Positions 1,981 through 16,155 of a stretch of DNA of 64,000 nt are shown piece by piece. Below the pieces are notes generated by a model. It saw nothing but the letters and a program-made list of their open reading frames with translations. It did not search any database and was not told the DNA's origin. The DNA is taken from the IMG/VR virus record IMGVR_UViG_3300030104_004642, positions 1 to 64,000 of that record. One strand, given 5' to 3'. Position 1 is the first letter of the stretch, and each line of letters starts with the position of its first letter. The position numbers and the translations under genes are program-made. The stretch comes from a virus.

Positions 1981-2194
1981 GCTGTTCACTTCTAAGACTG
2001 GCCACCTCCCTGATCAGATCATTATAATCCCTGACCAGTAGCATATGTTCATTCTCAAGATCCTCCACACGATATTGAAGTCTCTCTATCAGGTCATATA
2101 GATTCCTACAACGTTCAACATTGTCTGCTCCCCTATCTGTACTGGTGAAGAACCACTTAAAAAAGTTCTTCTTTTTCTTCTTACTCTTTTTCAT
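1967..2194 (-). CDS. hypothetical coiled-coil protein
   Basis: Start MKKSKKKKK, overlaps the pstS stop region. Confidence 0.55.
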   Translation of the reverse strand: MKKSKKKKKNFFKWFFTSTDRGADNVERCRNLYDLIERLQYRVEDLENEHMLLVRDYNDLIREVASLRSEQLDKS

Positions 2195-3149
2195 TGATGG
2201 TCTCCACTGCAGCAAGTGCTTTCAGTCTCACACTCTCAGGCAGGGCAACATAACCCATCCTTTCAGATTCATTCTGTGCCTCTTCACTCAATATAAAGTT
2301 AAGGGTTTCCTTAACACCAGGTCTTGATTCAGGGTAAGCAAGTATCCAGGTCAGTGAGACAATGGGATAGGAAATCTCACCAGCAGGATTGGGGTCAGTT
2401 CCCCTCAGTTTGTCATCAAGATTGATATTAGCAAGACCATGAGCAGTGGTTGTTGGGTTTGCTTTGAGAAACACACCCTCCTTATTCTGTAATGAGACCT
2501 GCTCCAACTTAGAGGTCATCACATAGTTATAGTTCAGATAACCAATAGAACCCTCTACTTGGAGCATCTGTGCAGCAACACCAGAGTTACCCTTTGCCCC
2601 TACACCCACAGGCCACTTAACTGTTTTTGCTGTGCCATACTTACTCTTCCATTCAGGGGAGAATGCTGACAGTGAGTTGGTAAATCCATAGGTTGTTCCA
2701 GCACCATCAGCACGATACACAACCATGATGGGCACATTACCACAACCAAACTCATTCCAGTTGTGAATCTTACCCATGAAGACATCAGCGAGTTGTGTCT
2801 GTGTCATCTTCACCTCACACCCTGGCACATTGAATGCTGGGACTATGGCACCCCCTGTGACAGGAATCTGAACCATACCACCCTCAGGTATCTTTGAGTC
2901 CTTTACAGAGGCATCTGAGGCACCAAAGTCAACTGTCTGCTTTACAAACTGTCTAACACCTGCACCACTACCAACTGCTTGATAGTTGACCTGATGACCA
3001 GTCTTGGAGGAAAACTTAGCAAACCAAGCCTGATAAAGTGGTGCTGGGAATGTTGCTCCTGCCCCTGAGATCTTAAAAACATCCTTCTTTTCTCCACAGG
3101 ATGCAAGGAGGGGTGCTACCAGGGCAGCAACGATAAATGCTTTTTTCAT
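2181..3149 (-). CDS. pstS: phosphate ABC transporter substrate-binding protein
   Basis: Lipoprotein signal (LLASC); GAGATFPAPLY, YQAVGSGAG, DFGASD, RADGAGTT, YPIVSLTW motifs. Confidence 0.96.
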   Translation of the reverse strand: MKKAFIVAALVAPLLASCGEKKDVFKISGAGATFPAPLYQAWFAKFSSKTGHQVNYQAVGSGAGVRQFVKQTVDFGASDASVKDSKIPEGGMVQIPVTGGAIVPAFNVPGCEVKMTQTQLADVFMGKIHNWNEFGCGNVPIMVVYRADGAGTTYGFTNSLSAFSPEWKSKYGTAKTVKWPVGVGAKGNSGVAAQMLQVEGSIGYLNYNYVMTSKLEQVSLQNKEGVFLKANPTTTAHGLANINLDDKLRGTDPNPAGEISYPIVSLTWILAYPESRPGVKETLNFILSEEAQNESERMGYVALPESVRLKALAAVETINEKE

Positions 3150-3173
3150 ATTAGGTCTAAATGACATCACTAT

Positions 3174-3202: not shown

Positions 3203-3230
3203 AAAAAAAGGACCCCAGTTAGGAGTCCTT
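3203..3230 (-). terminator. rho-independent terminator
   Basis: AAGGACTCC-TAACT-GGGGTCCTT followed by a T-run; separates the OMP gene from pstS. Confidence 0.75.
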
Positions 3231-3250: not shown

Positions 3251-3616
3251 TCAGAAGCTGTACTTAAGACCCAGCTTACCACCCAGACCAAAATCATCAT
3301 CATCTTCAGCAGTCAGGAAAGAAACCTCACCATAGACGCCAATGGCATCAGAGACAGGGATACCCAGACCAGCCTTACCAGAGAACTGTGTGTCAGTATC
3401 CTCACCATCAACTGCTACAATGGCAGGACCAGCCTGAACATAGTAGGAAGCATCGCCTGCGTTTCCTTCGTAACCAACATGGATGTCAGTGGTTGCTCCA
3501 GAATAGTCATCACCAACCCAACCAGCGTTGGTTTCTACGTTTACATAGGGACCTGCAACAGCAGCGCCAGCAGACAGGGACAGTGCAGCACCAGCTGCGA
3601 ATACAGATTTGATCAT
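3251..3616 (-). CDS. small outer-membrane beta-barrel-like protein
   Basis: Signal peptide (AGAAVA), alternating amphipathic strands, C-terminal GLKYSF ending in Phe. Confidence 0.75.
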   Translation of the reverse strand: MIKSVFAAGAALSLSAGAAVAGPYVNVETNAGWVGDDYSGATTDIHVGYEGNAGDASYYVQAGPAIVAVDGEDTDTQFSGKAGLGIPVSDAIGVYGEVSFLTAEDDDDFGLGGKLGLKYSF

Positions 3617-3730: not shown

Positions 3731-3738
3731 TATTTATA
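3731..3738 (-). promoter_or_regulatory. T4-type late promoter
   Basis: TATAAATA on the minus strand upstream of the OMP gene leader. Confidence 0.75.
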
Positions 3739-3760: not shown

Positions 3761-4561
3761 TCAAGTTGGTGGGGTTTTCCCACCTGATGGTTCAGCAACC
3801 CTGCCCAGGTATGGGTCATAGTTCATCACTTCATCAATGGACAAACTGGCACCTGTTTGTTGCCAGTAGTTCATCTGAGCATCATAGTTCCCTTTGTGAA
3901 ATGCGTCAACGTGCTCAGGGTGGATACTGGAACCCAGTTCAATGCGATAAAGAAGAAGAGGAACAGCATAGGAGTTGCCTGAATTATAGATAAGGTCATC
4001 TGCTACTGGTCTTGGTCTAACTCCATTATCTAGTTTAAACTTGTCACCCCTACAATGTAGATTGATAAGTTTCTTAGCATGATGCCTTGTGATCAGATAA
4101 CAGGCAGTGGAGAACTCATTCACAAATCTCTTGTGGATCTTTGTGTAGATATCACCTGTGCAAATGATAGCAATTTGTACTACATCCCAATCATAGGGCA
4201 ACTTTGCCACCACGTCCTTCCATGTAAAGTTCCAACACTTTACTGTATCAAAGGCACAATCATCCTCCATGATAATCGCATATGGATCATCAGATTCCTC
4301 ATAGAACTTTTTGATTGCTTTAAGGTGTGATGTGGTACAACCCACCTCACCTGGTGACATCATATCAGGGTATCTTCCCTTAAGGATGTGACCCAAATCA
4401 TCATCCCTGCCATCATATCCAGAGATCCTTTGGTAATTATCAACCTGCCAATACTTAAACTGATCCTCAATGTACTTCCATCTCTCTGGTTGCCCATCAA
4501 GATTGATACAATAGATAGGACCCATTTCTTGAAGTTTATATGCTGCCTTGTTCTTATCCAT
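3761..4561 (-). CDS. glycosyltransferase family 25
   Basis: YCINLD..PER, GEVGCTTSH, IIMEDD, STACYLI motifs. Confidence 0.88.
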   Translation of the reverse strand: MDKNKAAYKLQEMGPIYCINLDGQPERWKYIEDQFKYWQVDNYQRISGYDGRDDDLGHILKGRYPDMMSPGEVGCTTSHLKAIKKFYEESDDPYAIIMEDDCAFDTVKCWNFTWKDVVAKLPYDWDVVQIAIICTGDIYTKIHKRFVNEFSTACYLITRHHAKKLINLHCRGDKFKLDNGVRPRPVADDLIYNSGNSYAVPLLLYRIELGSSIHPEHVDAFHKGNYDAQMNYWQQTGASLSIDEVMNYDPYLGRVAEPSGGKTPPT

Positions 4562-5363
4562 TAATCACCTTCCACCCATGACAATACAGGTCCTTAGTAT
4601 TTAAGTGTGCATTATTTGGTCCAAACCATCTACTTGGTGCTATAACCTTCTCACCCTGTCCTAACCATGCTCCCCACCAGGAGAATGAGGAGTTAGCAAT
4701 AATATGATCACTACACTGGGTCATCAGATATAGGTCATGATATGGTCCTGCTGCCTCTGAGACAAGGAATCTATCATCACTGAATAGTTGTTGTTCCATA
4801 CACCACTTAGGATCATCACTGAAAATAATGATCTGCCTTTTGGCATCAATCTTTCCCAATGCCCTCTCATAATATTCAAGTGGTAGATTATGATGATTAC
4901 CAGAGTTGATAAGAAAATCTCCCCTGCGTATATGTAAGGCAACAGGATCCTCAAAACAGGAATCCACAATCTCCCTACACTCATTCACAATCTGTTTCTT
5001 AAATGTGAACTGCTGTCTTACCTCATCCTCACAGTGTTGAAAGTATTTGTCTGTCTGAAAGAATCCATACAGTGTAAAATTCACACTGGGATCTGTTGCA
5101 AAGGCATAACTATTAAACTGAAATCCCTTCTCAGCAAGGACATTCTGTTCCTTCAGCATCCCAATATTATCTGGTTTGATATCAAAACAATCAAACAATT
5201 CTATCCTTAGTTTGTTACCAATACCATCATCAAAGATCTCATCATGATTTGGTATCATAAAAGGCACCCCCAGTTTCCTGGCGATGCCTAATGTTGCTGC
5301 ATACTGAAACATTTGATTTCCAAGTTGTCCCAGTTTGCCAAGATAATTAAATGCTACAGTCAT
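4554..5363 (-). CDS. alpha-1,2-fucosyltransferase (GT11)
   Basis: GQLGNQMFQYA, GFFQ, LHIRRGD, FSDD, IIANSSFSWWGAWL motifs. Confidence 0.92.
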   Translation of the reverse strand: MTVAFNYLGKLGQLGNQMFQYAATLGIARKLGVPFMIPNHDEIFDDGIGNKLRIELFDCFDIKPDNIGMLKEQNVLAEKGFQFNSYAFATDPSVNFTLYGFFQTDKYFQHCEDEVRQQFTFKKQIVNECREIVDSCFEDPVALHIRRGDFLINSGNHHNLPLEYYERALGKIDAKRQIIIFSDDPKWCMEQQLFSDDRFLVSEAAGPYHDLYLMTQCSDHIIANSSFSWWGAWLGQGEKVIAPSRWFGPNNAHLNTKDLYCHGWKVING

Positions 5364-6328
5364 GAAAGAAGTAGATTACAAATTTCTTTTGTCTTGTTTA
5401 TACCCATAAGGGATTCCTCAAGCAGGATGTCCACCTTAGAATTATAATCCACAAAAACCTCATAGTCAACCTGGTTCAGCAGGCAGTCAATCCAGCAACT
5501 GGATGGGTTGGTCACATAATACTTTGACCCAATAGAATATAACTGTGATCTGTTAATTTTATTGTGAACTAACCAGGCATTATCAACCAGATGATTATCA
5601 GGACTTCTTAGAAGAATATACTCAAGTTTAGGATGTAATACTCCACCATTACAGGTTGGATGTCTTACAAAATAGCAAGGACCATGAGATAGATCAGAGA
5701 TCTTATCCCATGTCTCTTCTTTCCACTTCTCTGTATAGATTCCTGCCCACTCCCCACTGTTTGTGTCAAGCTTGATATCCTGAGAGTTTGGTTTATCAAA
5801 TCCATTAGTAAAGAAGAATACCTTACTCCCTTTGATAGGTGGTATCTTTGAGTAGAAATGATTTGGGACACCAACATGTAGAATCTTTTGTTTAGGTGTA
5901 GCAATCTTTGGATTCAGGTAATCCTCTTTGACCCAAGTGATCACATGGTCAGCACTAAAAAAATATTTTGGAAGTCTGGTGAGTGCTTCTTGTGAGATAC
6001 CATGCTGTATAGCATAGGTTTTACACTTCACCTTAGTACAAAGGTTAAAATCATAATGATGATACTGATTGCTTGTGCCAGATGTAACAAGCATGGAGTT
6101 AGCATCCTCTGAGTATTCAATAAGTCTCCTCTCCTCTTTTATGTCAAGGGTATAAAACTTTGAATACCTATCCACATACTCATTTACCTTGTATGCCAGG
6201 GCATCATTACTAAGTTCAGCAAAATTTGTGTAAAGAAGAACCTCATGTCCCCCCTCACACATATTTTTTATCATAGGAATCAAGAACCTTAGATGATTCC
6301 TAGTTGTGGTGCATAATATAACTTTCAT
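5360..6328 (-). CDS. putative GT-B fold transferase (TagF/capsule polymerase-like)
   Basis: IQHG, ADHVITW, VGVP, VRHP and SS motifs in the order typical of CDP-glycerol/capsule transferases. Confidence 0.5.
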   Translation of the reverse strand: MKVILCTTTRNHLRFLIPMIKNMCEGGHEVLLYTNFAELSNDALAYKVNEYVDRYSKFYTLDIKEERRLIEYSEDANSMLVTSGTSNQYHHYDFNLCTKVKCKTYAIQHGISQEALTRLPKYFFSADHVITWVKEDYLNPKIATPKQKILHVGVPNHFYSKIPPIKGSKVFFFTNGFDKPNSQDIKLDTNSGEWAGIYTEKWKEETWDKISDLSHGPCYFVRHPTCNGGVLHPKLEYILLRSPDNHLVDNAWLVHNKINRSQLYSIGSKYYVTNPSSCWIDCLLNQVDYEVFVDYNSKVDILLEESLMGINKTKEICNLLLS

Positions 6329-6957
6329 TACTTAAATGTAATAGCAAATATAAGATCATCATATCTATTTTTGACCTCCCTAAGGTCAACACCCTTACCC
6401 ACATACCTATCACCACCAACCTCTTTCAGTTTCTTATCAAGTGCCTCAAAGTCCTCAACCTTTTGCACATCCTCAATAAACAATGTGCCTCCTTTTTTGA
6501 GCATGGGAAGATAGTATTCAATACACAACACCTGTGATTCTAAGGTATGGGGTCCATCATCAAAGATAATATCAAAACCCTCTGGTCTTACCTTTTTAAC
6601 CTGTGCTGGTGTGTCCTCATCATAGGCATCACAGTTTGCATATGTAAATCTCTTATTGTCCATGATCTCCCAGCATTTTGGATTCATGGTCTCTTGAATA
6701 TCAAGTAGGAGGAGCCTTGATTTGGTCAGATAATCATGCCACAGGATAGCAGAACAACCATAGTTTGTGCCCAGTTCTAAAACTGAAACATCCTTATCCT
6801 TATACTTCTCAAGATTCTCAACATAGAAGTCACAATAACCATGCTCAGCATCCTTGTCAGTTCCCCAACCACCAAGATGCCTTCCCTGACTATCATACTT
6901 ACCACTGAATCCATTCATGTTATACTTTTCAATGATTTCTACTAATTGATTTTTCAT
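6328..6957 (-). CDS. class I SAM-dependent methyltransferase (sugar O-methyltransferase-like)
   Basis: GTDK..H.Y, VLELG, DIIFDDGPH, GGTLFIED motifs; start taken at MKNQ. Confidence 0.8.
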   Translation of the reverse strand: MKNQLVEIIEKYNMNGFSGKYDSQGRHLGGWGTDKDAEHGYCDFYVENLEKYKDKDVSVLELGTNYGCSAILWHDYLTKSRLLLLDIQETMNPKCWEIMDNKRFTYANCDAYDEDTPAQVKKVRPEGFDIIFDDGPHTLESQVLCIEYYLPMLKKGGTLFIEDVQKVEDFEALDKKLKEVGGDRYVGKGVDLREVKNRYDDLIFAITFK

Positions 6958-6961
6958 AATT

Positions 6962-7813
6962 CTAAGTTGGGTACTTTGTTCTTGGTAAATATGCCCTATT
7001 GGGCAAATGCTTTGGATCAATCTTAATATGTTTCTTGTTGCCATTGAGCACAAAGTAATTATAACATAAGACAGATTCTAATTGCGTCTTGATGTCTGCT
7101 CCTTTGCACCTGTTCTCATACTCCTTTGAGGATAGATTCTCATCCTGATAAACCCTGTTGAATACATCCTCCTTTCCAATCTCACACCAGGTCTTCATTG
7201 CCAATGGATCACCAAAGACAACAATATCACTCAGGATCTTATTGAATACACCATTGTCAAGGGTAACAGAGAAGTCATAATCCATACCAAATAGTGTATT
7301 GTTCTCAATAAACTTCTCATAGTAGTTTAGATCCAACTGTGATACCCAGGCATCATATCTTGATTTAATAATCAGATCATAGGTCTCTGGATTCTCAATC
7401 AGTTTGTATGATTTATAAATGTTTCTGACCTGCCCATAGTAACTCCTAAGGGTGGATTCTTCATTCTCAGCACACCCCATCTTGGCAGATTTGCTCTCCA
7501 CAAATCCAGGTGATGACCTAATTAGATGACAATACTTATTGGCAAAGTTACTAATCTCCTCATCCACCATCTCATAGTTTTCAATATTGATACTCTTATA
7601 GTCAAGGTATCTCTCAAAGAATAACCAATCAATCCTTGGTGAGTTTGTATATCCCTTCTTATCAGCAGGTTCCTTATGTGGTGCCCCTATAATATCATAT
7701 GTGTTTGAGTAGATGTCAATCCTATGACCTAAATTTAATTTTTTAAATTTCCAAATCTCCTCAAAATACTTAGTATCCCTTACAAATCCAGGAAGTAGAT
7801 ATGCTACCTTCAT
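6962..7813 (-). CDS. putative glycosyltransferase-like protein
   Basis: MKVAYLLPGFVR N-terminus, YDLIIKSRYD and SDIVVFG motifs; inside the sugar cluster. Confidence 0.45.
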   Translation of the reverse strand: MKVAYLLPGFVRDTKYFEEIWKFKKLNLGHRIDIYSNTYDIIGAPHKEPADKKGYTNSPRIDWLFFERYLDYKSINIENYEMVDEEISNFANKYCHLIRSSPGFVESKSAKMGCAENEESTLRSYYGQVRNIYKSYKLIENPETYDLIIKSRYDAWVSQLDLNYYEKFIENNTLFGMDYDFSVTLDNGVFNKILSDIVVFGDPLAMKTWCEIGKEDVFNRVYQDENLSSKEYENRCKGADIKTQLESVLCYNYFVLNGNKKHIKIDPKHLPNRAYLPRTKYPT

Positions 7814-8502
7814 AGGATACTCCTCAACACATTCTCAACCATCATACCCAGACCCTGTTCCCTTTCTCCACTAGACATAGACATATCCTTTTCAAGATGA
7901 TCAGACACTGTATTTACTGACAGTGCTTTCTTGTTAAATCTATTAGCAATACTATAAAGAACATGGGTCTCCATATCCACTGCCAGGATACCCATATCCC
8001 TCAATGATTTATGCCAATCAAGGTTTGGTTGATAAAAGTAATCATTGGATACCATCTGGCCAACATAAGCAAGAGGATCCACTTTCATATATTTTTCCAA
8101 CATGTAGTAATCACAACAGGGTGATAATCTAAACCCAGGAGCAAGGTTATCTGTCATAGCATTATCAGTGGCAGAACTCATAGCCACTACAATATCACCC
8201 ACCACAACATGGGGCGAGATACCACCACAACTCCCCACCCTTATGATCTTTTTAACATTATACTCTTTGAATAGTTCATGGACATAAATGCCAAGACTTG
8301 CCTGACCCATTCCACTTGCCTGAACAGATACAGGTTTACCCATATATGTGCCACTAAACCCCATACAATTACGTACAGTATTCACAGTTTTGACATTATC
8401 TAAAAACTTACCAGCAATCCACACTGCTCTCAGTGGGTCACCAGGCATGAGAACTATTGGATTGTATTCTCCCTTCTTTGCTTCAATGTGAGGTGTTGGC
8501 AT
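7810..8502 (-). CDS. deoD: purine nucleoside phosphorylase (hexameric DeoD type)
   Basis: TPHI, LMPGDPLRA, VR, GMG, IIRVGSCG, DME, VSDH motifs align with E. coli DeoD. Confidence 0.92.
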   Translation of the reverse strand: MPTPHIEAKKGEYNPIVLMPGDPLRAVWIAGKFLDNVKTVNTVRNCMGFSGTYMGKPVSVQASGMGQASLGIYVHELFKEYNVKKIIRVGSCGGISPHVVVGDIVVAMSSATDNAMTDNLAPGFRLSPCCDYYMLEKYMKVDPLAYVGQMVSNDYFYQPNLDWHKSLRDMGILAVDMETHVLYSIANRFNKKALSVNTVSDHLEKDMSMSSGEREQGLGMMVENVLRSIL

Positions 8503-9070
8503 TAGTTATGATTTGATAAACTTGTTTCCAGTTTTTTACACGAGGTCCATCCCAATCTTGATTGTATGGATGATCTATTAAGACACTTCTGAGACCAACT
8601 CTTTTTCCTGCCTGAGCATGGTTTACAGAATCCTCAATCCAATAATAATCCTTTTCACCATATCTGTCAAGAAGATATTGTTCTTTTCCAACACTAAAAT
8701 CTAAGGCACAATCAATAAAATCAAATACATCTCCAAAAAGATGAATAAGATTATTGCGCCTTAGTCTCTGAGCATACTTATCTTTATCAAGACAACTGAT
8801 AACCTCAAATCTCCATCCCTCCCTATTGAGTCTGGTCACATACTCAACAGAATCCCTGAGAGCAGGGATGAATCCAACACAACCAGATTGATTGAACTCC
8901 CTGGTAAGATAGATTGCTTGGTCCTCAGTAATACCATATCTTATTGATTGTTCATAATACTTGTCAGTATCATCTTGTCTCCTAAAACACTTCTCTGCCA
9001 TCCAGACATCAAAAGCGTATGCCCAATCAAGTAGCACACCATCACAATCAACAATTATTTTCTTTTCCAT
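8483..9070 (-). CDS. HAD-superfamily 5'(3')-nucleotidase-like (T4 gp30.2-like)
   Basis: VDCDGVL motif I, K motif III, WIEDS motif IV, HPYN. Confidence 0.8.
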   Translation of the reverse strand: MEKKIIVDCDGVLLDWAYAFDVWMAEKCFRRQDDTDKYYEQSIRYGITEDQAIYLTREFNQSGCVGFIPALRDSVEYVTRLNREGWRFEVISCLDKDKYAQRLRRNNLIHLFGDVFDFIDCALDFSVGKEQYLLDRYGEKDYYWIEDSVNHAQAGKRVGLRSVLIDHPYNQDWDGPRVKNWKQVYQIITNANTSH

Positions 9071-9788
9071 TTAAGAATTTGTAGATTTGATCCCAGGTTC
9101 CAAGGTCAACATAGTCATCAACTTCAATTGCCTTAGATTTATATATTGGTGTGTCTTTAATCTCCCCTACAAGGAGTCTATGATTCAATGTTGATTTCTC
9201 CATAAACTCAATACAATTATCAAAGACCCTTTTCCTGAAAGCAAAGGCAGTCCAGAAAGCATTAAACCTTTCTAGTTCTTCTTGAGGTTTATCTTCATAC
9301 TCTTCAACCAAATTATCTTGATCAATCCAGAGAGCACCTTTAGTTTTTAACATCTCATCATCATCCATCTCCCTTTTATAGAAGAATGTGAATCCTGTCT
9401 CATTCAAACTATCACCAACAAGACTCACAATGTCCTGAGATGATTTAAGTTTTAGAAAGGTATCAGGTAGAAGCACAAGATTCTTCTCACCAAACAGATG
9501 CTTGGCACTCTTAATTGATCCTGTATATTCAGTCTCTGCTGGATTGAAGAATGTGAATGAGATATTAAATCTTGTTTTATATCTACTCAGATACTTGATT
9601 AATTCAGTCTTATTCTCATTCAATGTCACAACAAATTGAACATCCCTTCTACCATAGTTCTGAAATAGATCAAAACTATAATCAATCAGTGACTTATTCT
9701 TTTCAATAGAGTGAATCTCTTTTGGATAGGGAAGGGATAATCTGGTTCCCTCACCAGCACAAGGAAGTATAACAGTTAGTTCAGACAT
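9048..9788 (-). CDS. sugar-1-phosphate nucleotidyltransferase
   Basis: LPCAGEGTRL..PKE signature, LPD, EDKP, YVDLGT motifs of the RmlA/GalU-like family. Confidence 0.85.
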   Translation of the reverse strand: MSELTVILPCAGEGTRLSLPYPKEIHSIEKNKSLIDYSFDLFQNYGRRDVQFVVTLNENKTELIKYLSRYKTRFNISFTFFNPAETEYTGSIKSAKHLFGEKNLVLLPDTFLKLKSSQDIVSLVGDSLNETGFTFFYKREMDDDEMLKTKGALWIDQDNLVEEYEDKPQEELERFNAFWTAFAFRKRVFDNCIEFMEKSTLNHRLLVGEIKDTPIYKSKAIEVDDYVDLGTWDQIYKFLNGKENNC

Positions 9789-10641
9789 TTTCTAGTGCAA
9801 AGGTCCCATTGCCAAATTCTAGCATGGAATACTGGGAGTACGCAAGGGTGTTCAACCACTGTTTTTTGTATGGATCAGGGGGATAGAAGGGACGTTCAAT
9901 CAAACTAAAATCTGACAATGAGACAGGTGCTGTGGGTGAGTTTTCATCAGTGAATGTAGGGATACCCTCCAAATGAGCAGTGATAGCAGCACAGGATGAG
10001 TGTGTAACCAGTGCCCAACAGTCTTTAAGATCCTCCTCTAATGTGGTCCTGGTTGATGGTGACATGACAGAGTTGATTGCTGGTTTATCCCTGATGACAA
10101 TCTCCCTATCTGTATGTTCCCTAAGGGTTTGTAGGGTTTTAGTTCTCCAATTCTTTTGATCATACAGGGCTAGTACATGCTCTGATGGTGGACATACAAG
10201 GATCTTTGATCCAGTCCTCTTGTACTCCTTACCATATCCATTAAAGTGATCATAGAAATACTTCTTCCATCTTGAACCATCAATGGCAAGGGGACTCTGA
10301 TGAATCTGGTTTTGAACATGACAGTTCTTTGATACCCTGAACCACTCACACTTGAAGGGATTCTTGTTTCCAGTATCCTGTGCATATCCTCTCCAAAAAT
10401 ATGCATGATCAATGTGATAATAATCTAAATTATTCTTCCTTCTATACTTGATAAAGTCATGAGTAAGACTACTGGTGGTCATATCACATAGGATAGGCAC
10501 AGTGTCATCAAATTTAGAATAAGATTCAGGTGATAGTTTTGAATTATTGATTACTTTAAACCCATAGTGATTACAGATATTAGTAATCACATCATTAAAT
10601 CCACCACTCTTCCTTGTGCTTTGAATACCAATATTAGACAT
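9781..10641 (-). CDS. putative GT-B fold / capsule-biosynthesis-like protein
   Basis: IDHAYF, ILVCPPS, IVIRDKP, LVTHSSCAAITAHLEGIP motifs. Confidence 0.5.
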   Translation of the reverse strand: MSNIGIQSTRKSGGFNDVITNICNHYGFKVINNSKLSPESYSKFDDTVPILCDMTTSSLTHDFIKYRRKNNLDYYHIDHAYFWRGYAQDTGNKNPFKCEWFRVSKNCHVQNQIHQSPLAIDGSRWKKYFYDHFNGYGKEYKRTGSKILVCPPSEHVLALYDQKNWRTKTLQTLREHTDREIVIRDKPAINSVMSPSTRTTLEEDLKDCWALVTHSSCAAITAHLEGIPTFTDENSPTAPVSLSDFSLIERPFYPPDPYKKQWLNTLAYSQYSMLEFGNGTFALENV

Positions 10642-11209
10642 AAGCAACCATGTTGCCACCCTCAGCAACTTTAAATTTATAATCCAATCCCAGACTCCTA
10701 ATCAGATCAGTGGTTGGTTGTTGATCCTTTTGCTTTACCTCATAGAACATAACTGGTTTATATTCCTTGATAGTTTGCATACCACCCTGAATAATTTGAA
10801 ACTCACTACCCTCAGTGTCAATCTTGATGAAAGATACATCAGTAAAGTTGTATGAGTCCAGGGTCTTGACAGCAACATCCTTAATTACATATGGATTTTT
10901 ACCCTCATTCTCCCAGAATCCACCCTTCTTAAACCTACTGATACTGGCATGACCAGGGATATCCCTACCATTAGGAAGGATAAGATCAGTGGTGGTCTCA
11001 GTATCACTCAGGGCAACATTATACTTCTCAACATCCTCAGAGAGTTGTTCAAAGGTATATGGATTTGGTTCAAAACAAATTACACGCTCAAAGTCCTTCA
11101 CAAGGGCAGTGGATGTGTCACCATCAAGGGCACCAATATCAATATAGGTGTTAAATTTTTGGATATGTGGATAGGCAGATCTCCTAATCCTTTCAAGATC
11201 AACACTCAT
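10634..11209 (-). CDS. FkbM-family methyltransferase
   Basis: IDIGALDG, FEPNP, NVALS, TLDS, IKIDTEGSE motifs. Confidence 0.9.
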   Translation of the reverse strand: MSVDLERIRRSAYPHIQKFNTYIDIGALDGDTSTALVKDFERVICFEPNPYTFEQLSEDVEKYNVALSDTETTTDLILPNGRDIPGHASISRFKKGGFWENEGKNPYVIKDVAVKTLDSYNFTDVSFIKIDTEGSEFQIIQGGMQTIKEYKPVMFYEVKQKDQQPTTDLIRSLGLDYKFKVAEGGNMVAYV

Positions 11210-11928
11210 TTTAATAACTCTGGACTTCTTTTCATACCCTTTCTACCACCCTTTCTATGGTCAACATAGGGACTCAGGATGGGACACCTTGCCATAACAT
11301 GTCTGTGAAATTCATGATCATTGATGGCATCACCACCACCATGAAACTTTGCTGTTGCCTCAGGGAACATCTCCATCACCCTGTCAAATATGTAGGAGTC
11401 ATTCTGTTGCTTGTAATCAAAGATCTTACCAGTATCATATACCTCCTGAAACTTATCAAAGAATCTTTGAACCACCTCACTCTTACAGTTATAGGTTACA
11501 AATCCAGTCTCAGTGTAATAACTTGGTCTGGGATAGTATGAGAAATCCCTATCACCAATAAAGTTATCATACCATTCCATTGGAATTTGTTTCAGGAAGA
11601 CACAATCAGCATCAATGAAGAACTGCCTATCACCCCATTGTCTACCACCACACTGAGCATATACCTTATATGCAAATCTGACAGCATCCATGATGTAATT
11701 ATCCACATCACCCTTCTGATACTTCTTAATGAAAGCAGCAATGGGGGTCTCCCTAAAAATGTTAAGGTATTTAATTTTTGGATGTTGAGGATAGAGTAGG
11801 ATATTATCCTCCTCCACATAACAATACAATGGGGGATGCTGATGGGTATCAAGATATGTCCTGATCAGATCCTTAGCATACTCATCATAGAGTTTCTTAT
11901 TAAATGTGGTTAAAAAATAATTACTCAT
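11206..11928 (-). CDS. putative GT-A glycosyltransferase
   Basis: AVRFAYKVYA, FIDAD (DxD), ETGF, DSYIFD, H.KG motifs. Confidence 0.6.
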   Translation of the reverse strand: MSNYFLTTFNKKLYDEYAKDLIRTYLDTHQHPPLYCYVEEDNILLYPQHPKIKYLNIFRETPIAAFIKKYQKGDVDNYIMDAVRFAYKVYAQCGGRQWGDRQFFIDADCVFLKQIPMEWYDNFIGDRDFSYYPRPSYYTETGFVTYNCKSEVVQRFFDKFQEVYDTGKIFDYKQQNDSYIFDRVMEMFPEATAKFHGGGDAINDHEFHRHVMARCPILSPYVDHRKGGRKGMKRSPELLK

Positions 11929-12631
11929 GTTTCATTACACAATAATCTACTTCTGCCTGAATGATGTTATCCTTGTTAACATCACTATTGATCTTTGATG
12001 ATAGTTGTTCTGAGTGAACCCTGTTAGTTACAAGGTCATCCATCAGATAAAATGGTTGACCATGATTCTTATCAAGATGATAATAGAACTCAACATCCAT
12101 CATCATCCTAACATTCTCATCAAATCTTTCCACCACCTTATCATTCTTGAATGCCAATACTGATGGAGAACTGATTGAGTTTACACCCCTGATGATATCA
12201 TCATTCCAACCTGGCATCATGGTCCAGTAGAAATCATTACCATCAGTCTGGGTGTGATTGCATCCACATACCAACCAATCCTTATCACTCTCCATCAGGG
12301 ATGTGTATATCTTTTCAAGTGCCTCATCATCATAGAAGAAGTCATCCTGAAATAATACCTTTACGACCTCACCATTACAATGATTGATGGCATTGTTGGC
12401 ATTAAAGGAGATATTTCCCCTCTCTTCCCTGTTTCTGACATACTTGATATTTACACCATTCCTCTCATAATGCTTGACAACATTCTTGACCTCATTACCC
12501 TCACAACTATCAGATACAATTATCTCCCAGTCAGTAAGGGTTTGTATTTGCACTGTGCGCACAAGGTCATCCAGGAACTCAGCACCCCTTCCGTGTGCTT
12601 CCCATGCAGGAACTGCTATTGATACTTTCAT
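11921..12631 (-). CDS. glycosyltransferase family 2
   Basis: KVSIAVP, EIIVSD, N.NNAI, LFQDD, PS, RVH motifs; start taken at MKVS. Confidence 0.88.
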   Translation of the reverse strand: MKVSIAVPAWEAHGRGAEFLDDLVRTVQIQTLTDWEIIVSDSCEGNEVKNVVKHYERNGVNIKYVRNREERGNISFNANNAINHCNGEVVKVLFQDDFFYDDEALEKIYTSLMESDKDWLVCGCNHTQTDGNDFYWTMMPGWNDDIIRGVNSISSPSVLAFKNDKVVERFDENVRMMMDVEFYYHLDKNHGQPFYLMDDLVTNRVHSEQLSSKINSDVNKDNIIQAEVDYCVMKHE

Positions 12632-13627
12632 CACATAGTTCTCATTTGAATTTGCTTTCCAATCCATTTATATGTTGCTGCAATGCCCTCTTCAAGGGTC
12701 ATTGAGTAATCCCAATCAAGTTTTTCCCTGACAAGATCATTGTTAGAGTTACGTCCTCTAACACCAAGGGGTCCATCAATATGAATCTTGCTGACTTCCT
12801 TTTCAGCAACCTTGGCAACAGTGTCAACCAGTTGATTAATTGTGACCATCTCCTCAGAACCAATGTTCAATGAACAGGAAGGAACGAGTTTGTGTGCCAT
12901 CTCCCCACACCTCAATTGCTCCACCCTTCTTTGGAAGGTAGGAGACCTTACGACAGATTGCAGCTGGACTCTTCTCTCTTCCTCCCTCCCAGGTGCCCTC
13001 AGGTCCAAAAATATTATGATACCTGGCAATCCTAACAGGAATAGCATGGTTCCTATTGTAAGCAAGGTAGAGACGCTCAGAGAATAGTTTCTCCCATCCA
13101 TACTCTGAATCTGGTGCTGCTGGATATGCTGATTCTTCACGGCAATCAGGGTTGTCTGGGTCAAGTTGGTTGTACTCAGGGTACATGCAGGCAGAACTGG
13201 AATAGAAGATCTTGGTAGAATTCTTACCCTTCTCCTCATTCATTTTGCGCACACCTTCCAATACATTCAGGTTAATAGAAACTGAATTGTGCATGATATC
13301 TGCATCATTCTCACCTGTAAATACAAAACCAGCACCACCCATATCAGCAGCAAACTGATAGATCTCATCAAATGGCTGAATGTATCTGTAAGGGACAGAG
13401 TTATAGAAGTTACCCCTGTCCCCCTTATATTCCAAACATCTTTCTACAAATCTTGTATCTGTTAGATCCCCAACCACAAATTCATTGGCATGATGATCAC
13501 TAAATTCAGGATATTTTACATCAACACCCCTAACCCAGTATCCATCTTCACGCAGTCTTTTAACCATGTGACTGCCAATGAATCCACCAGCACCCAATAC
13601 GAGTGCCTTCTTTACATATTGAGACAT
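12631..13627 (-). pseudogene. GDP-mannose 3,5-epimerase-like NAD-dependent epimerase with an internal frameshifting deletion
   Basis: GAGGFIG, AADMGG, YGWEK, RYHNIFGP motifs in the 12854..13627 frame; the C-terminus (NIGSEEMVTINQL...GPLGVRGRNSNN) is in another frame; junction TTC ATT G|AAC ATT GGT near 12865-12872. Confidence 0.8.
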
Positions 13628-13650: not shown

Positions 13651-13679
13651 ATTATATCAAGCAGAGTATTTTTTGACAA
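13651..13679 (-). promoter_or_regulatory. sigma70-type promoter of the sugar cluster
   Basis: TTGTCA-17 nt-TATAAT. Confidence 0.65.
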
Positions 13680-13917: not shown

Positions 13918-14481
13918 TCACTTGTCTTCAATAAACCAATCAATACCCTCCCTACTTGCTAGTTTATCCACATCATGAGGATCCATCTCACCCTTTGGCA
14001 AATAAGCAAGTTCTCTCAAAGCATATACTGATGGATCCATAGTAACACTCGTGGGTAATCTACCTAGTGCCACATTATCAAAGTTAAGTTGATGCCTATC
14101 AAATGTAGAGAGTTCATATTCTTCTGTGTGTGATAGACAGTTTGTTGGGCAGTATTCCACACAGTTTCCACAGAATATACAAACCCCAAAATCTATAGAA
14201 TAGTTTCTTAACTCCTTCTTCTTGCTCTTCTTATTCATCACCCAATCAACCACTGGAAGGTTGATTGGACAGACACGAACACAAACCTCACAGGCAATAC
14301 ACTTATCAAACTCATAGTGTATTCTTCCCCTATATCTTTCAGAGGGTATTAGTTTCTCATAGGGATACTGGACAGTGATGGGTCTCCTTTTCATATGATC
14401 AAAGGTGACTGACATCCCCTGAGCCATATATTTGGCAGTATTAACTACCTCTTTTAAGTATCCAAAGATTGAGTTTCCCAT
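13918..14481 (-). CDS. ndhI: NDH-1 complex subunit I (2x[4Fe-4S])
   Basis: [32 protein letters not shown] and [12 protein letters not shown]; cyanobacterial type. Confidence 0.95.
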
Positions 14482-14507: not shown

Positions 14508-14533
14508 AAAAAAAGCAGGGTGATCACCCTGCT
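14508..14533 (-). terminator. rho-independent terminator
   Basis: Perfect palindrome AGCAGGGTGATCACCCTGCT followed by a T-run. Confidence 0.8.
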
Positions 14534-14550
14534 CAGAAGCACTTGTCAAC

Positions 14551-15465: not shown

Positions 15466-16155
15466 TTAAATAAATGTTTGTAATTTGTGTAAAATTACTT
15501 TATATGCCTCCACTATATCACCCTCATCCAATCTGAACAAGTCCTTATCATACCTCTCCATATCACTCTTTCCCCACAATCTCATTGAGTCAGGTGATAT
15601 CTCATCAGCAAGTAATAGTTCACCATGAGCATCAATACCAAACTCAATCTTGAAGTCAATAACATCAAACCCAATTATGTTGAACATGTTAATGAGATAA
15701 TCATTAATCAACATTGCTTGCTCAACAATTGGAGCAGAGTCATATCCCATCAATTTAACCCTATCCCTTGTGAGTAAAGGGTCATGCTTGCTATCATCCT
15801 TTAAAAAGAATTCTACAATGGCAGGTAGGATTGGTTGACCCTCCTTAAGTGTGGTGGTCTTCACAATAGATCCTGCTGCCCTGTTTCTAACAATTACTTC
15901 CAGTGGAATGATATCCACCTTCTTACACAACATCCTGTTAGGACCAACCTGTGTGATGTAATGATTTCTAACACCAAGATCTGCTAACTTTTCAAAGATA
16001 ATGGATGAGATCTGACAACAAAGTGAACCCTTACCAGCAGGATAATCCTCCTTCTCACCATTTCCAGCAGTAACTTTATCATGATAATGAATCAATACTT
16101 CTTCAGCATTATCAGTATTGAATACTGTTTTTACCTTACCCTCAACAACAAGCAT
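15466..16155 (-). CDS. purC: SAICAR synthetase
   Basis: EGKVK, IPLEVIVRN.AAGS, EFFLKDD..HDP, DFKIEFG, LADEISPDSMRLW, DKDLFR. Confidence 0.95.
   Translation of the reverse strand: MLVVEGKVKTVFNTDNAEEVLIHYHDKVTAGNGEKEDYPAGKGSLCCQISSIIFEKLADLGVRNHYITQVGPNRMLCKKVDIIPLEVIVRNRAAGSIVKTTTLKEGQPILPAIVEFFLKDDSKHDPLLTRDRVKLMGYDSAPIVEQAMLINDYLINMFNIIGFDVIDFKIEFGIDAHGELLLADEISPDSMRLWGKSDMERYDKDLFRLDEGDIVEAYKVILHKLQTFI

Follow-up and report, generated by a model that had tools for sequence, protein, structure and literature searches.

A co-inherited cassette of nucleotidyltransferase, HAD phosphatase and DeoD genes in marine cyanophages: a candidate route from purine nucleotides to NDP-pentofuranose

Why would a phage carry genes for a predicted sugar-1-phosphate nucleotidyltransferase (NTase), a HAD phosphatase and a purine nucleoside phosphorylase as an overlapping trio in the middle of a glycan island? 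The arrangement was found in a 64,000-nt stretch of DNA (the window; positions 1 to 64,000 of IMG/VR record IMGVR_UViG_3300030104_004642), which stems from an uncultured ocean cyanophage. An earlier reading of the letters without database searches (the sequence-only reading) had described three overlapping genes and proposed that they form a linear pathway from nucleotides to an activated pentose. The three ORFs were located exactly where that reading had placed them, with overlaps of 23 and 20 nt (Table 1), and alignments showed that the start sites of all three match those of homologues.

Table 1. Coordinates of the cassette, the surrounding island and nearby signals within the window.
Feature	Position	Strand	Basis
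NTase-HAD-DeoD cassette	9788-7810	-	ORF check
Sugar-1-phosphate nucleotidyltransferase (NTase), predicted, 246 aa	9048..9788	-	PF00483, AF2 model, fold match, family motifs
HAD-superfamily phosphatase, proposed nucleotidase, 195 aa	8483..9070	-	PF06941, PF00702, phrog_420, AF2 model
DeoD-type (hexameric-class) purine nucleoside phosphorylase, predicted, 230 aa	7810..8502	-	PF01048, NF004489
13-gene glycan island	3761..13627	-	Pfam families around cassette
SDR epimerase, broken	12631-13627	-	Pfam
GT2	11921-12667	-	Pfam
Family-less ORF	11206-11928		no Pfam, NCBIfam or PHROG family
FkbM methyltransferase	10634-11209	-	Pfam
295-aa ORF (cluster c16), directly upstream of NTase	9781..10668	-	no Pfam, NCBIfam or PHROG match
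283-aa ORF, directly downstream of DeoD	6962..7813	-	no family match; slot variable elsewhere
Methyltransf_24	6328-7053	-	Pfam
Family-less ORF	5360-6328		no Pfam, NCBIfam or PHROG family
GT11	4554-5363	-	Pfam
GT25	3761-4561	-	Pfam
Sigma-70-like promoter match, TTGTCA-17-TATAAT, TG-extended, 11/12	13651..13679	-	consensus scan only
Terminator-like hairpin	14513-14534		
Terminator-like hairpin	3208-3230		

The order of genes in the island is broken SDR epimerase, GT2, family-less ORF, FkbM methyltransferase, family-less ORF, cassette, family-less ORF, methyltransferase, family-less ORF, GT11 and GT25. The families detected agree with the earlier description of a cassette embedded among GT-like and methyltransferase genes. 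A similar setting was seen in about 70 cyanophage-type contigs, in which GT2, GT6, GT11, GT25, SDR and methyltransferase genes surround the cassette, and the families recurring near it in other contigs were SDR (36), GT11 (30), GT6 (18), GT25 (13) and FkbM (13). The sigma-70-like match lies just upstream of the first island gene, and the two terminator-like hairpins bracket the island, within which no TATAAATA late-promoter motif was found.

The four family-less ORFs had been taken for transferases, an assignment that found no backing in Pfam, NCBIfam or PHROG; they are real conserved viral genes. Homologues of the c16 ORF adjoin the NTase gene in five other loci, and because the same position is kept in a second phage clade (see below), this ORF is a candidate partner of the cassette, perhaps a transferase. 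PDB profile searches with c16 and with c20, one of the genes found after deoD elsewhere, gave no match. Weak Atlas leads were PF05159 (Capsule_synth), present on 17% of a cluster near c16, and DUF7796, present on 11%, for the family-less ORFs. Homologues of the ORF directly downstream of DeoD were restricted to two near-identical loci among those fetched. The genes in this slot (c9, c20, c47, the ORF at 6962 and others) showed no mutual homology in hhalign and thus no conserved fourth gene; they also showed no kinship with a LipN-like glycosyltransferase, and no dedicated transferase is conserved beside the cassette.

The trio itself is strikingly constant. The order NTase-HAD-DeoD was retained in 41-42 of 43 other IMG/VR contigs, on the same strand and mostly with overlaps, and a metagenome scan revealed it in about 35 more contigs. 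Since the same order recurs in all these contigs, the clustering is far beyond chance, and the synteny that the sequence-only reading had proposed to check across phage contigs is well documented. In total, the block occurs on about 80 other phage DNA pieces. Across the IMG/VR contigs the identity of the cassette ranges from 53 to 98%, with 53-63% at the low end, and the flanking genes are shuffled while the order of the trio is invariant. The pairwise-distance matrices of the three proteins correlate with r values of 0.83-0.88 overall and of 0.76-0.80 within the cyanophage clade. The invariant order despite shuffled flanks, together with the correlated matrices, supports the view that the three genes are co-inherited as a unit.

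A tblastn search of 50,697 phage records did not detect the NTase in cultured-phage records, and the DeoD matches among these records were bacterial-like sequences with 40% identity. A scan of cellular genome contigs yielded two MAG matches. The first holds the whole cassette and is probably of phage origin and mis-binned; in the second, from Acidobacteria, an NTase gene is located after a trans-AT PKS, and HAD and DeoD were not found in that genome. A distant metagenomic lineage (L121/L122) has a DeoD-like gene (38% identity) near an NTase of the family (30% identity) in a different arrangement.

A second clade of the cassette was found in phages of roughly 360 kb, where it adjoins replication genes. 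On one side it has DNA Pol III alpha/DnaB or terminase/gp32/RecA, on the other radical-SAM genes, and classical glycosyltransferases do not surround it. A T4-type DNA polymerase was looked for in these contigs and not found; they belong to a different kind of phage. The proposed setting in a glycosylation operon therefore holds for the cyanophage contigs but is not exclusive. Homologues of two family-less island ORFs (c15 and c16) and FkbM accompany the cassette in this clade as well.

By its modelled fold, the first gene product is a sugar-1-phosphate NTase. It passed the Pfam gathering score for PF00483 (NTP_transferase; 29.8 bits, cutoff 21.2), and its AF2 model (pLDDT 88) aligned with GalU, RmlA, GlmU-N, AGPase and GMPP at Z scores of 19-20.7 and an rmsd of about 3 Å, all tied, over 218-230 (about 225) of its 246 residues. 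The N-terminal loop G12-x-G14-x-R16-L17 and K23 are invariant in homologues, and D166-K167-P168 (the (E/D)KP sugar-phosphate motif, here with Asp for Glu), D109 and D228 are conserved; we take these latter residues to correspond to the sugar-phosphate/metal-binding residues of RmlA by motif, not by superposed coordinates. In a search of the NTase profile against the PDB, RmlA, GalU and GlmU were not matched at E<=1. An IspD/TarI-type cytidylyltransferase (CDP-ribitol-like) was considered and rejected: the match is limited to the N-terminal 50-70 residues, and the whole-domain fold is that of sugar-1-phosphate NTases.

The NTase profile, with the subfamily signature PCAGxGxRLxLPxPKE / E[YW]xG[SA][IV]xSA / LLPD / DKP / YxDLGTW, retrieved just 439 clusters among 1.84 billion representatives. 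What is new here is that sequence comparison places the phage NTase in a narrow subfamily that includes the NTases of Lip-like Streptomyces clusters. The NTase of S. clavuligerus pSCL3 aligned over its full length (hhalign 99.6%, E 1.2e-23, 231 columns, 30% identity), and a Sphaerisporangium protein was among the 439 clusters (E 6e-30). Next to the pSCL3 NTase gene are genes for a class-III aminotransferase, a GT4-like protein, a TauD dioxygenase and a threonine-transaldolase-like SHMT, a layout repeated on a second Streptomyces plasmid. This set of enzymes is that of the LipO/LipM/LipN/LipL/LipK pathway, so that the Streptomyces NTases may correspond to LipM, as judged by gene neighbourhood. 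The Streptomyces loci have no annotated phosphorylase. Other relatives accompany a kinase (on a Bacillus megaplasmid) or a PKS, or are fused to a radical-SAM domain (P0190, a fusion not found in the viral contig collection); hence the family is not tied to phosphorylases. In cellular genomes, a glycosyltransferase gene typically follows that of the NTase.

The second gene product most resembles 5'(3')-deoxyribonucleotidases and is regarded as a putative nucleotidase. Its full-length match to PF06941 (NT5C) scored 23.4 bits, just below the gathering cutoff of 24.8; PF00702 scored 23.9 bits, and phrog_420 was matched at 3.8e-28. Motif I reads DCDGVLLDW, and DxDGVLxDW, D97-K98 and E146-D147 are invariant across homologues. 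For the AF2 model (pLDDT 92.5) the best structural match was the deoxyribonucleotidase-like protein 3bwv (Z 18.7, 2.6 above the next), followed by GmhB (Z 16.1) and mdN/cdN (Z 15.4-15.8, about 178 residues aligned).

The third gene is predicted to encode an intact DeoD-type purine nucleoside phosphorylase. The protein exceeded the cutoff of NCBIfam NF004489 (250.7 bits versus 230), fell just under that of TIGR00107 (225.4 versus 232.25 bits) and matched Bacillus PNP 2ac7 at 1.6e-56. In 32 viral sequences the equivalents of E. coli His4, Arg24, Arg43, Met64, Arg87, Met180-Glu181, Asp204 and Arg217 show no variation; we take these to be the residues of the phosphate, ribose and base sites. An identity as MTA/SAH nucleosidase was rejected, as the Pfs models gave at most 57 bits compared to 250 for the DeoD model.

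Since the three genes are co-inherited and keep their catalytic residues, and since the NTase has the fold of sugar-1-phosphate NTases and belongs to the Lip-like subfamily, their best reading is a route from NMP via nucleoside and (deoxy)ribose-1-phosphate to an NDP-pentofuranose used by the glycosyltransferases of the island. We hold this reading to be somewhat probable. The HAD protein would strip a purine (d)NMP of its phosphate to leave the nucleoside, the DeoD-type phosphorylase would convert nucleoside and phosphate to free base and alpha-(deoxy)ribose-1-phosphate, and the NTase would form NDP-pentofuranose and pyrophosphate from this sugar-1-phosphate and an NTP. Phosphorolysis of nucleosides is unfavourable in thermodynamic terms, and flux would be drawn through it by the irreversible steps on either side (push-pull). 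The glycosyltransferases of the variable island would then use the NDP-pentofuranose to decorate a glycan, and co-occurring SDR enzymes may epimerise the donor before transfer. The HAD protein may alternatively act like GmhB and remove the 5-phosphate after phosphorolysis, which would leave the net product unchanged. We infer what each of the three enzymes acts on, the order of the steps, the nucleotide used and the acceptor. Several points count against this route: sugar specificity is not readable from sequence, the HAD protein scores below the NT5C cutoff with GmhB as second structural neighbour, the cassette has no conserved dedicated transferase, and other members of the NTase family have a kinase, PKS or radical-SAM partner, so that the family is not bound to phosphorylases. 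Furthermore, GT11 enzymes classically use GDP-fucose, and NDP-(2-deoxy)ribofuranose is expected to be chemically labile.

The linear route of the sequence-only reading thus stands as the best explanation, but its chemistry has a precedent. In the aminoribosyl pathway of A-90289, LipP makes 5-amino-5-deoxyribose-1-phosphate, which LipM activates (PMC4902027). LipP/LipM/LipN of A-90289, caprazamycin and muraymycin follow the same logic, from a phosphorylase via pentofuranose-1-phosphate and a small NTase to an NDP-pentose and a glycosyltransferase. The phage cassette differs by its DeoD-type purine phosphorylase and its proposed nucleotidase, has neither a dioxygenase nor an aminotransferase for modification of C5' beforehand, lacks a LipN-like glycosyltransferase, and resides in a viral glycan island instead of an antibiotic cluster.

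Ribofuranose in bacterial polysaccharides can also originate from PRPP, either by gPRT and a HAD phosphoribose phosphatase or by a polyprenyl-phosphoribose synthase, a flippase and a GT-C enzyme (PMC11127046). As in the proposed phage route, a pentofuranose reaches a surface glycan, a HAD phosphatase takes part, and the pentose can be varied by SDR epimerases. These systems, however, start from PRPP in place of an NDP-sugar and depend on a phosphoribosyltransferase, a family that was found in no ORF of the island; the phage HAD protein is a stand-alone enzyme accompanied by an NTase and a nucleoside phosphorylase. The nucleotide-heptose pathway (kinase, GmhB, HddC/HldE) likewise places a HAD phosphatase just before a sugar-1-phosphate NTase. 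The phage has no isomerase or kinase for it, the anomeric phosphate would come from the phosphorylase in place of the kinase, and deoxyribonucleotidases give a better and fuller alignment with the phage HAD protein than GmhB does. Bacterial deo-type nucleoside catabolism shares the DeoD class with identical catalytic residues and a nucleotidase feeding DeoD, but the phage lacks phosphopentomutase and aldolase, and ribose-1-phosphate is apparently passed to the NTase and not to central metabolism.

Among the alternatives, the one that survives best has the NTase activating an ordinary sugar-1-phosphate, for instance fucose-1-phosphate for GT11, while HAD and DeoD clear and recycle the nucleotide by-product (NDP/NMP to nucleoside to base), thereby relieving product inhibition and salvaging purines. 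DeoD and NT5C-type HAD proteins are classical salvage and catabolic enzymes, purC is about 6 kb from the cassette, and GT11 is often, in about 30 contigs, encoded directly upstream of the NTase. The cassette persists, however, where GT11 is absent or distant (the present window, the clade of about 360 kb and locus L053), and no kinase or other source of hexose-1-phosphate is conserved with it. In addition, the NTase subfamily is distinct from hexose-1-phosphate NTases and groups with those of Lip-like clusters, and host NDP kinase already recycles NDPs. We consider such a by-product role unlikely.

Phosphorolysis by DeoD of 5'-deoxyadenosine or methylthioadenosine, released by nearby radical-SAM enzymes or methyltransferases, could also provide a 5-modified ribose for an NDP-5-deoxy- or NDP-5-methylthio-pentose. 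Cyanophage islands contain methyltransferases alongside the cassette, in locus L013 it is followed by two radical-SAM/SPASM genes, the NTase family includes one radical-SAM fusion, and in the Lip pathway, the characterised precedent, the ribose is 5-modified (PMC4902027). This source of the sugar is nonetheless quite improbable: the equivalent of His4, the residue that touches the 5'-OH of ribose in E. coli PNP, is invariant; the protein is recognised as DeoD, with far lower scores for the MTA/SAH nucleosidase and MTA phosphorylase models; methyltransferases release SAH and not MTA; and the nucleotidase would have no role. A device acting on the nucleotide pool, on DNA modification or in counter-defence, which might provide the sugar of hypermodified DNA or eliminate or convert a nucleotide signal, accords with the replication and radical-SAM neighbours in the second clade and with the occurrence of phrog_420 HAD proteins without their partners in many large phages, but has an equally small chance given the glycan-gene surroundings in about 70 cyanophage-type contigs, the c15, c16 and FkbM companions even in the second clade, and the glycosyltransferases that typically follow the NTase family in cellular genomes.

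To our knowledge, formation of an NDP-pentofuranose via a nucleoside phosphorylase is documented solely for aminoribosyl antibiotics, and no relevant paper emerged from literature searches for a nucleotide-to-pentose pathway in phages or for NDP/UDP-ribose donors. According to the current view, PRPP-derived donors are the sole source of ribofuranose in bacterial glycans (PMC11127046). It is conceivable, if slightly less than an even prospect, that phages use host purine nucleotides directly to make true NDP-ribofuranose, or by SDR epimerisation NDP-xylo- or NDP-arabinofuranose. Pentofuranosyl glycans would then have a third source in addition to the two PRPP-based ones, and the conversion of pool nucleotides into a building block for glycans would be a new class of viral auxiliary metabolism, one that is widespread among marine cyanophages and phages of about 360 kb. 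If true, viral and bacterial glycobiology would gain a new sugar nucleotide, and three small enzymes would become available for one-pot NDP-pentose synthesis. For the phages themselves, nucleotide scavenging during infection would be tied to glycosylation of the surface or the virion, and the question of what cyanophages build with their hypervariable glycan islands would become approachable.

The NTase, HAD and DeoD genes of the cassette are encoded on the minus strand, which carries nearly every gene of the window, and their reading frames overlap by 23 nt and 20 nt. The surrounding island additionally encodes members of the SDR epimerase, GT2, FkbM methyltransferase, Methyltransf_24 methyltransferase, GT11 and GT25 families. 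The sequence-only reading had placed the trio among glycosyltransferase and methyltransferase genes, and this is borne out by ORF coordinates, overlaps, family matches and island content. It had also taken four flanking ORFs for uncharacterised transferases; family searches detected no family for any of the four. The island is neighboured by usual cyanophage genes (pstS, cyanophage OMP, purC, nrdA, g43), and the flanking DNA resembles that of T4-like Synechococcus and Prochlorococcus myoviruses. The IMG/VR record has a length of 115 kb, of which the window covers the first 64 kb. A 56-nt deletion relative to contig locus L002 (93% identical), where the SDR gene is intact (350 aa), splits the SDR gene of the window into two overlapping frames; either the gene is a pseudogene, or the assembly is in error here. 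A promoter match precedes the island, and a consensus scan found no late TATAAATA motif within it, which hints at early expression, as judged from consensus matches only.

Features of the cassette, the island and its flanks (window coordinates)
Feature	Coordinates	Strand	Size	Remarks
PstS	2181-3170	-		flanking auxiliary gene
Terminator-like hairpin	3208-3230	-		strong; brackets island
Cyanophage outer-membrane beta-barrel protein	3251-3616	-		PF24653; flanking auxiliary gene
T4-type late motif TATAAATA, nearest copy	3731-3738	-		past last island gene, before cyanophage OMP gene
Island	3761-13627	-		contains the cassette
DeoD	7810-8502	-	230 aa	third ORF of trio; NCBIfam NF004489 (DeoD-type purine nucleoside phosphorylase), 250.7 bits vs cutoff 230
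HAD	8483-9070	-	195 aa	second ORF of trio; PF06941 (5'(3')-deoxyribonucleotidase, NT5C) full-length, just sub-threshold; phrog_420 strong
NTase	9048-9788	-	246 aa	first ORF of trio; PF00483 (NTP_transferase) above gathering score
c16	9781-10668			ORF cluster
c15	11206-11928			ORF cluster
SDR epimerase/dehydratase	12631-13627	-		two overlapping frames
Sigma-70-like promoter match	13651-13679	-		11/12, TG-extended; consensus match only; ahead of island
2x[4Fe-4S] ferredoxin-domain protein	13918-14481	-		flanking auxiliary gene
Terminator-like hairpin	14513-14534	-		strong; brackets island
PurC	15466-16155	-		flanking auxiliary gene

IMG/VR searches using DeoD and the NTase as queries yielded 51 loci on 43 contigs. 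Clustering of all ORFs in these contigs revealed HAD and DeoD in 42 of the 43 each and the NTase in 41, and the few missing members are consistent with contig ends (e.g., L005, L011, L015, L030, L040). The sequence-only reading had called for synteny to be compared across phage contigs: the order NTase-HAD-DeoD on a single strand is invariant across the IMG/VR contigs, in which identity to the window proteins drops to 53–63%, and it recurs in ~35 further contigs from a metagenome scan. Only rarely is the trio interrupted by an inserted gene (L007, L012 and several metagenome-scan loci). The flanking genes are reshuffled between the IMG/VR contigs: after the trio, the commonest neighbours are SDR enzymes in 36 contigs, GT11 in 30 (often immediately upstream of the NTase), GT6 in 18, a GT25-like family in 17, GT25 itself in 13 and FkbM methyltransferases in 13. 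For the three proteins, the matrices of pairwise distances were correlated overall (r 0.83–0.88) and within the cyanophage clade (r 0.76–0.80; permutation p ≤ 0.001 for both), as is expected anyway for linked genes of related genomes. More telling than this correlation is that the trio stays together despite changed surroundings. The NTase was absent from the 50,697 deposited phage genomes searched, so the cassette is known from uncultured viruses only.

Several related cyanophage islands (L003, L022, L026, L031, L035, L042 and others) combine GT25 with GT6, the blood-group A/B transferase family, and GT11, the H-antigen fucosyltransferase family, which suggests histo-blood-group-like oligosaccharides as putative products.

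Ten contigs (L013, L014, L016-L018, L020, L021, L023, L047 and L050) form a divergent clade, and these phages are of a different type from the cyanophages. CheckV completeness of the five contigs checked was 12–31%, corresponding to whole genomes of ~360 kb in four cases and ~150 kb for L047. The clade encodes DNA Pol III alpha, DnaB, a T4-type terminase, and gp32-like and RecA-like proteins. Its cassette adjoins replication genes. Next comes the conserved gene c20, whose N-terminal motifs IPSRGRP and DDD/GDE appear GT-A-like; one contig has a pair of radical-SAM/SPASM genes downstream as well. Homologues of c16, c15 and FkbM are likewise found near the cassette. Since c16 is positioned immediately upstream of the NTase in this clade and in the window alike, it is the best candidate for a functional partner of the cassette; searches assigned no fold to it. 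In L050 a second, divergent HAD paralogue (positions 7363-8004, 34% identity) directly precedes the NTase, giving the order HAD-NTase-HAD-DeoD. A 19-kb contig (L053) from a 2-Mb alphaproteobacterial MAG labelled Rickettsiales (G007, NZHE01000028.1) carries the full cassette and c20, 75–79% identical to those of the second-clade phages; it is likely to be a phage contig binned in error or a prophage.

The window DeoD is ~42–45% identical to Bacillus purine nucleoside phosphorylases. Residues corresponding to E. coli His4, Arg24, Arg43, Met64, Arg87, Met180/Glu181, Asp204 and Arg217 are invariant among 32 viral DeoD sequences, and this favours an ordinary purine (deoxy)ribonucleoside with a free 5'-OH as the likely substrate. 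In the HAD protein all catalytic motifs are kept, and motif I (DCDGVLLDW) is similar to the mdN/cdN form. Its AF2 model (pLDDT 92.5) is nearest to the deoxyribonucleotidase-like structure 3bwv (Z 18.7), with GmhB second (Z 16.1, 149 residues aligned) and mdN/cdN at Z 15.4–15.8 (~178 residues aligned).

The AF2 model of the NTase (pLDDT 88) superposes on GalU, RmlA, GlmU-N, AGPase and GMPP with Z 19–20.7. The enzyme retains the GxGTRL loop, Lys23, Asp109, a DKP motif, which is EKP in RmlA/GalU-type enzymes, and Asp228. At E ≤ 1 its profile found no RmlA, GalU or GlmU chain in the PDB. When 1.84 billion representatives were searched exhaustively, only 439 clusters matched the profile at E ≤ 1e-3, and these have a clear common signature. 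Among the members that carry a name are one protein from a megaplasmid of the Bacillus cereus group and one from Sphaerisporangium. At the Bacillus locus an APH-family kinase is encoded upstream of the NTase, which is followed by a protein homologous to the GT4-like protein of the Streptomyces loci described below (32% identity, E 2e-73) and a Cof-type HAD. Judged by the gene contexts of its members, the subfamily appears to make NDP-sugars for dedicated GTs. A distant metagenomic lineage has a DeoD-like gene (38% identity) two genes from a subfamily NTase (30% identity) in a different arrangement. The 566-aa JGI metagenome protein P0190 is a natural fusion of radical-SAM/SPASM (1-300) to a subfamily NTase (310-556). 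An Acidobacteria MAG (CAIMWE010000174.1; L054:45-6729, native 69% GC) encodes an NTase that shares 62% identity with that of the phage, 25 nt downstream of a 1976-aa trans-AT-type PKS gene (KS, DH, KR, ACP); this MAG yielded no homologue of HAD or DeoD.

Two Streptomyces plasmids, S. clavuligerus pSCL3 (L059) and that of Streptomyces sp. NBC_01244 (L060), carry a subfamily NTase with four flanking genes, which encode an aminotransferase of class III, a GT4-like protein (413 aa), a dioxygenase of the TauD type and an SHMT-like protein; the last of these scored highest as fluorothreonine transaldolase. NRPS genes come next, the loci also contain a HAD-methyltransferase fusion, and no phosphorylase is annotated in them. 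A homologous GT4-like protein of ~413 aa always follows the NTase in L059, L060 and B. thuringiensis pBTKNU07-01 (L058). The phage NTase profile matched the S. clavuligerus NTase with 99.6% probability (hhalign; E 1.2e-23, 30% identity, 231 columns). In the Lip pathway of A-90289 the dioxygenase, transaldolase and aminotransferase are LipL, LipK and LipO, respectively; the phosphorylase LipP yields 5-amino-5-deoxyribose-1-P, the NTase LipM converts it to NDP-aminoribose, and LipN is the GT (PMC4902027). A Sphaerisporangium strain has a LipK homologue (PMC4902027). By neighbourhood, which provides the link to LipM, the Streptomyces NTase gene set matches this pathway, and both appear to be uncharacterised clusters for nucleoside antibiotics of the GlyU/aminoribosyl type. 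The Lip type is the only characterised-pathway layout among the NTase-containing clusters and would point to a phosphorylase-made pentofuranose-1-P.

In the proposed pathway HAD would convert NMP to the nucleoside, DeoD would cleave this with Pi into base and pentose-1-P, and the NTase would form NDP-pentose and PPi from pentose-1-P and NTP. From known thermodynamics, the irreversible steps on either side would drive the unfavourable phosphorolysis. A GmhB-like order, with phosphorolysis preceding 5-phosphate removal, may apply instead and would leave the product unchanged. We lean slightly towards the cassette being an NDP-pentose route. Trio identity, co-inheritance and the Lip-like kin of the NTase partly support the sequence-only proposal of a route to NDP-(deoxy)ribose for flanking transferases; its transferase part is weakened by the four family-less ORFs. 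Epimerisation of the pentose by the SDRs that occur with the cassette is conceivable, by analogy with that of undP-Ribf to undP-Xylf (PMC11127046).

The ribofuranose of bacterial polysaccharides is reported to derive from PRPP, by gPRT and a HAD phosphatase or via polyprenyl-phosphoribose (PMC11127046). Whereas these systems need a phosphoribosyltransferase, none is present among the island ORFs. Our literature search found neither a description of the cassette in phages nor NDP-ribofuranose as a glycan donor. The closest known system is LipP/LipM/LipN, from which the phage cassette differs by a purine DeoD-type phosphorylase, an additional nucleotidase, the absence of C5' tailoring enzymes and its location in viral glycan islands.
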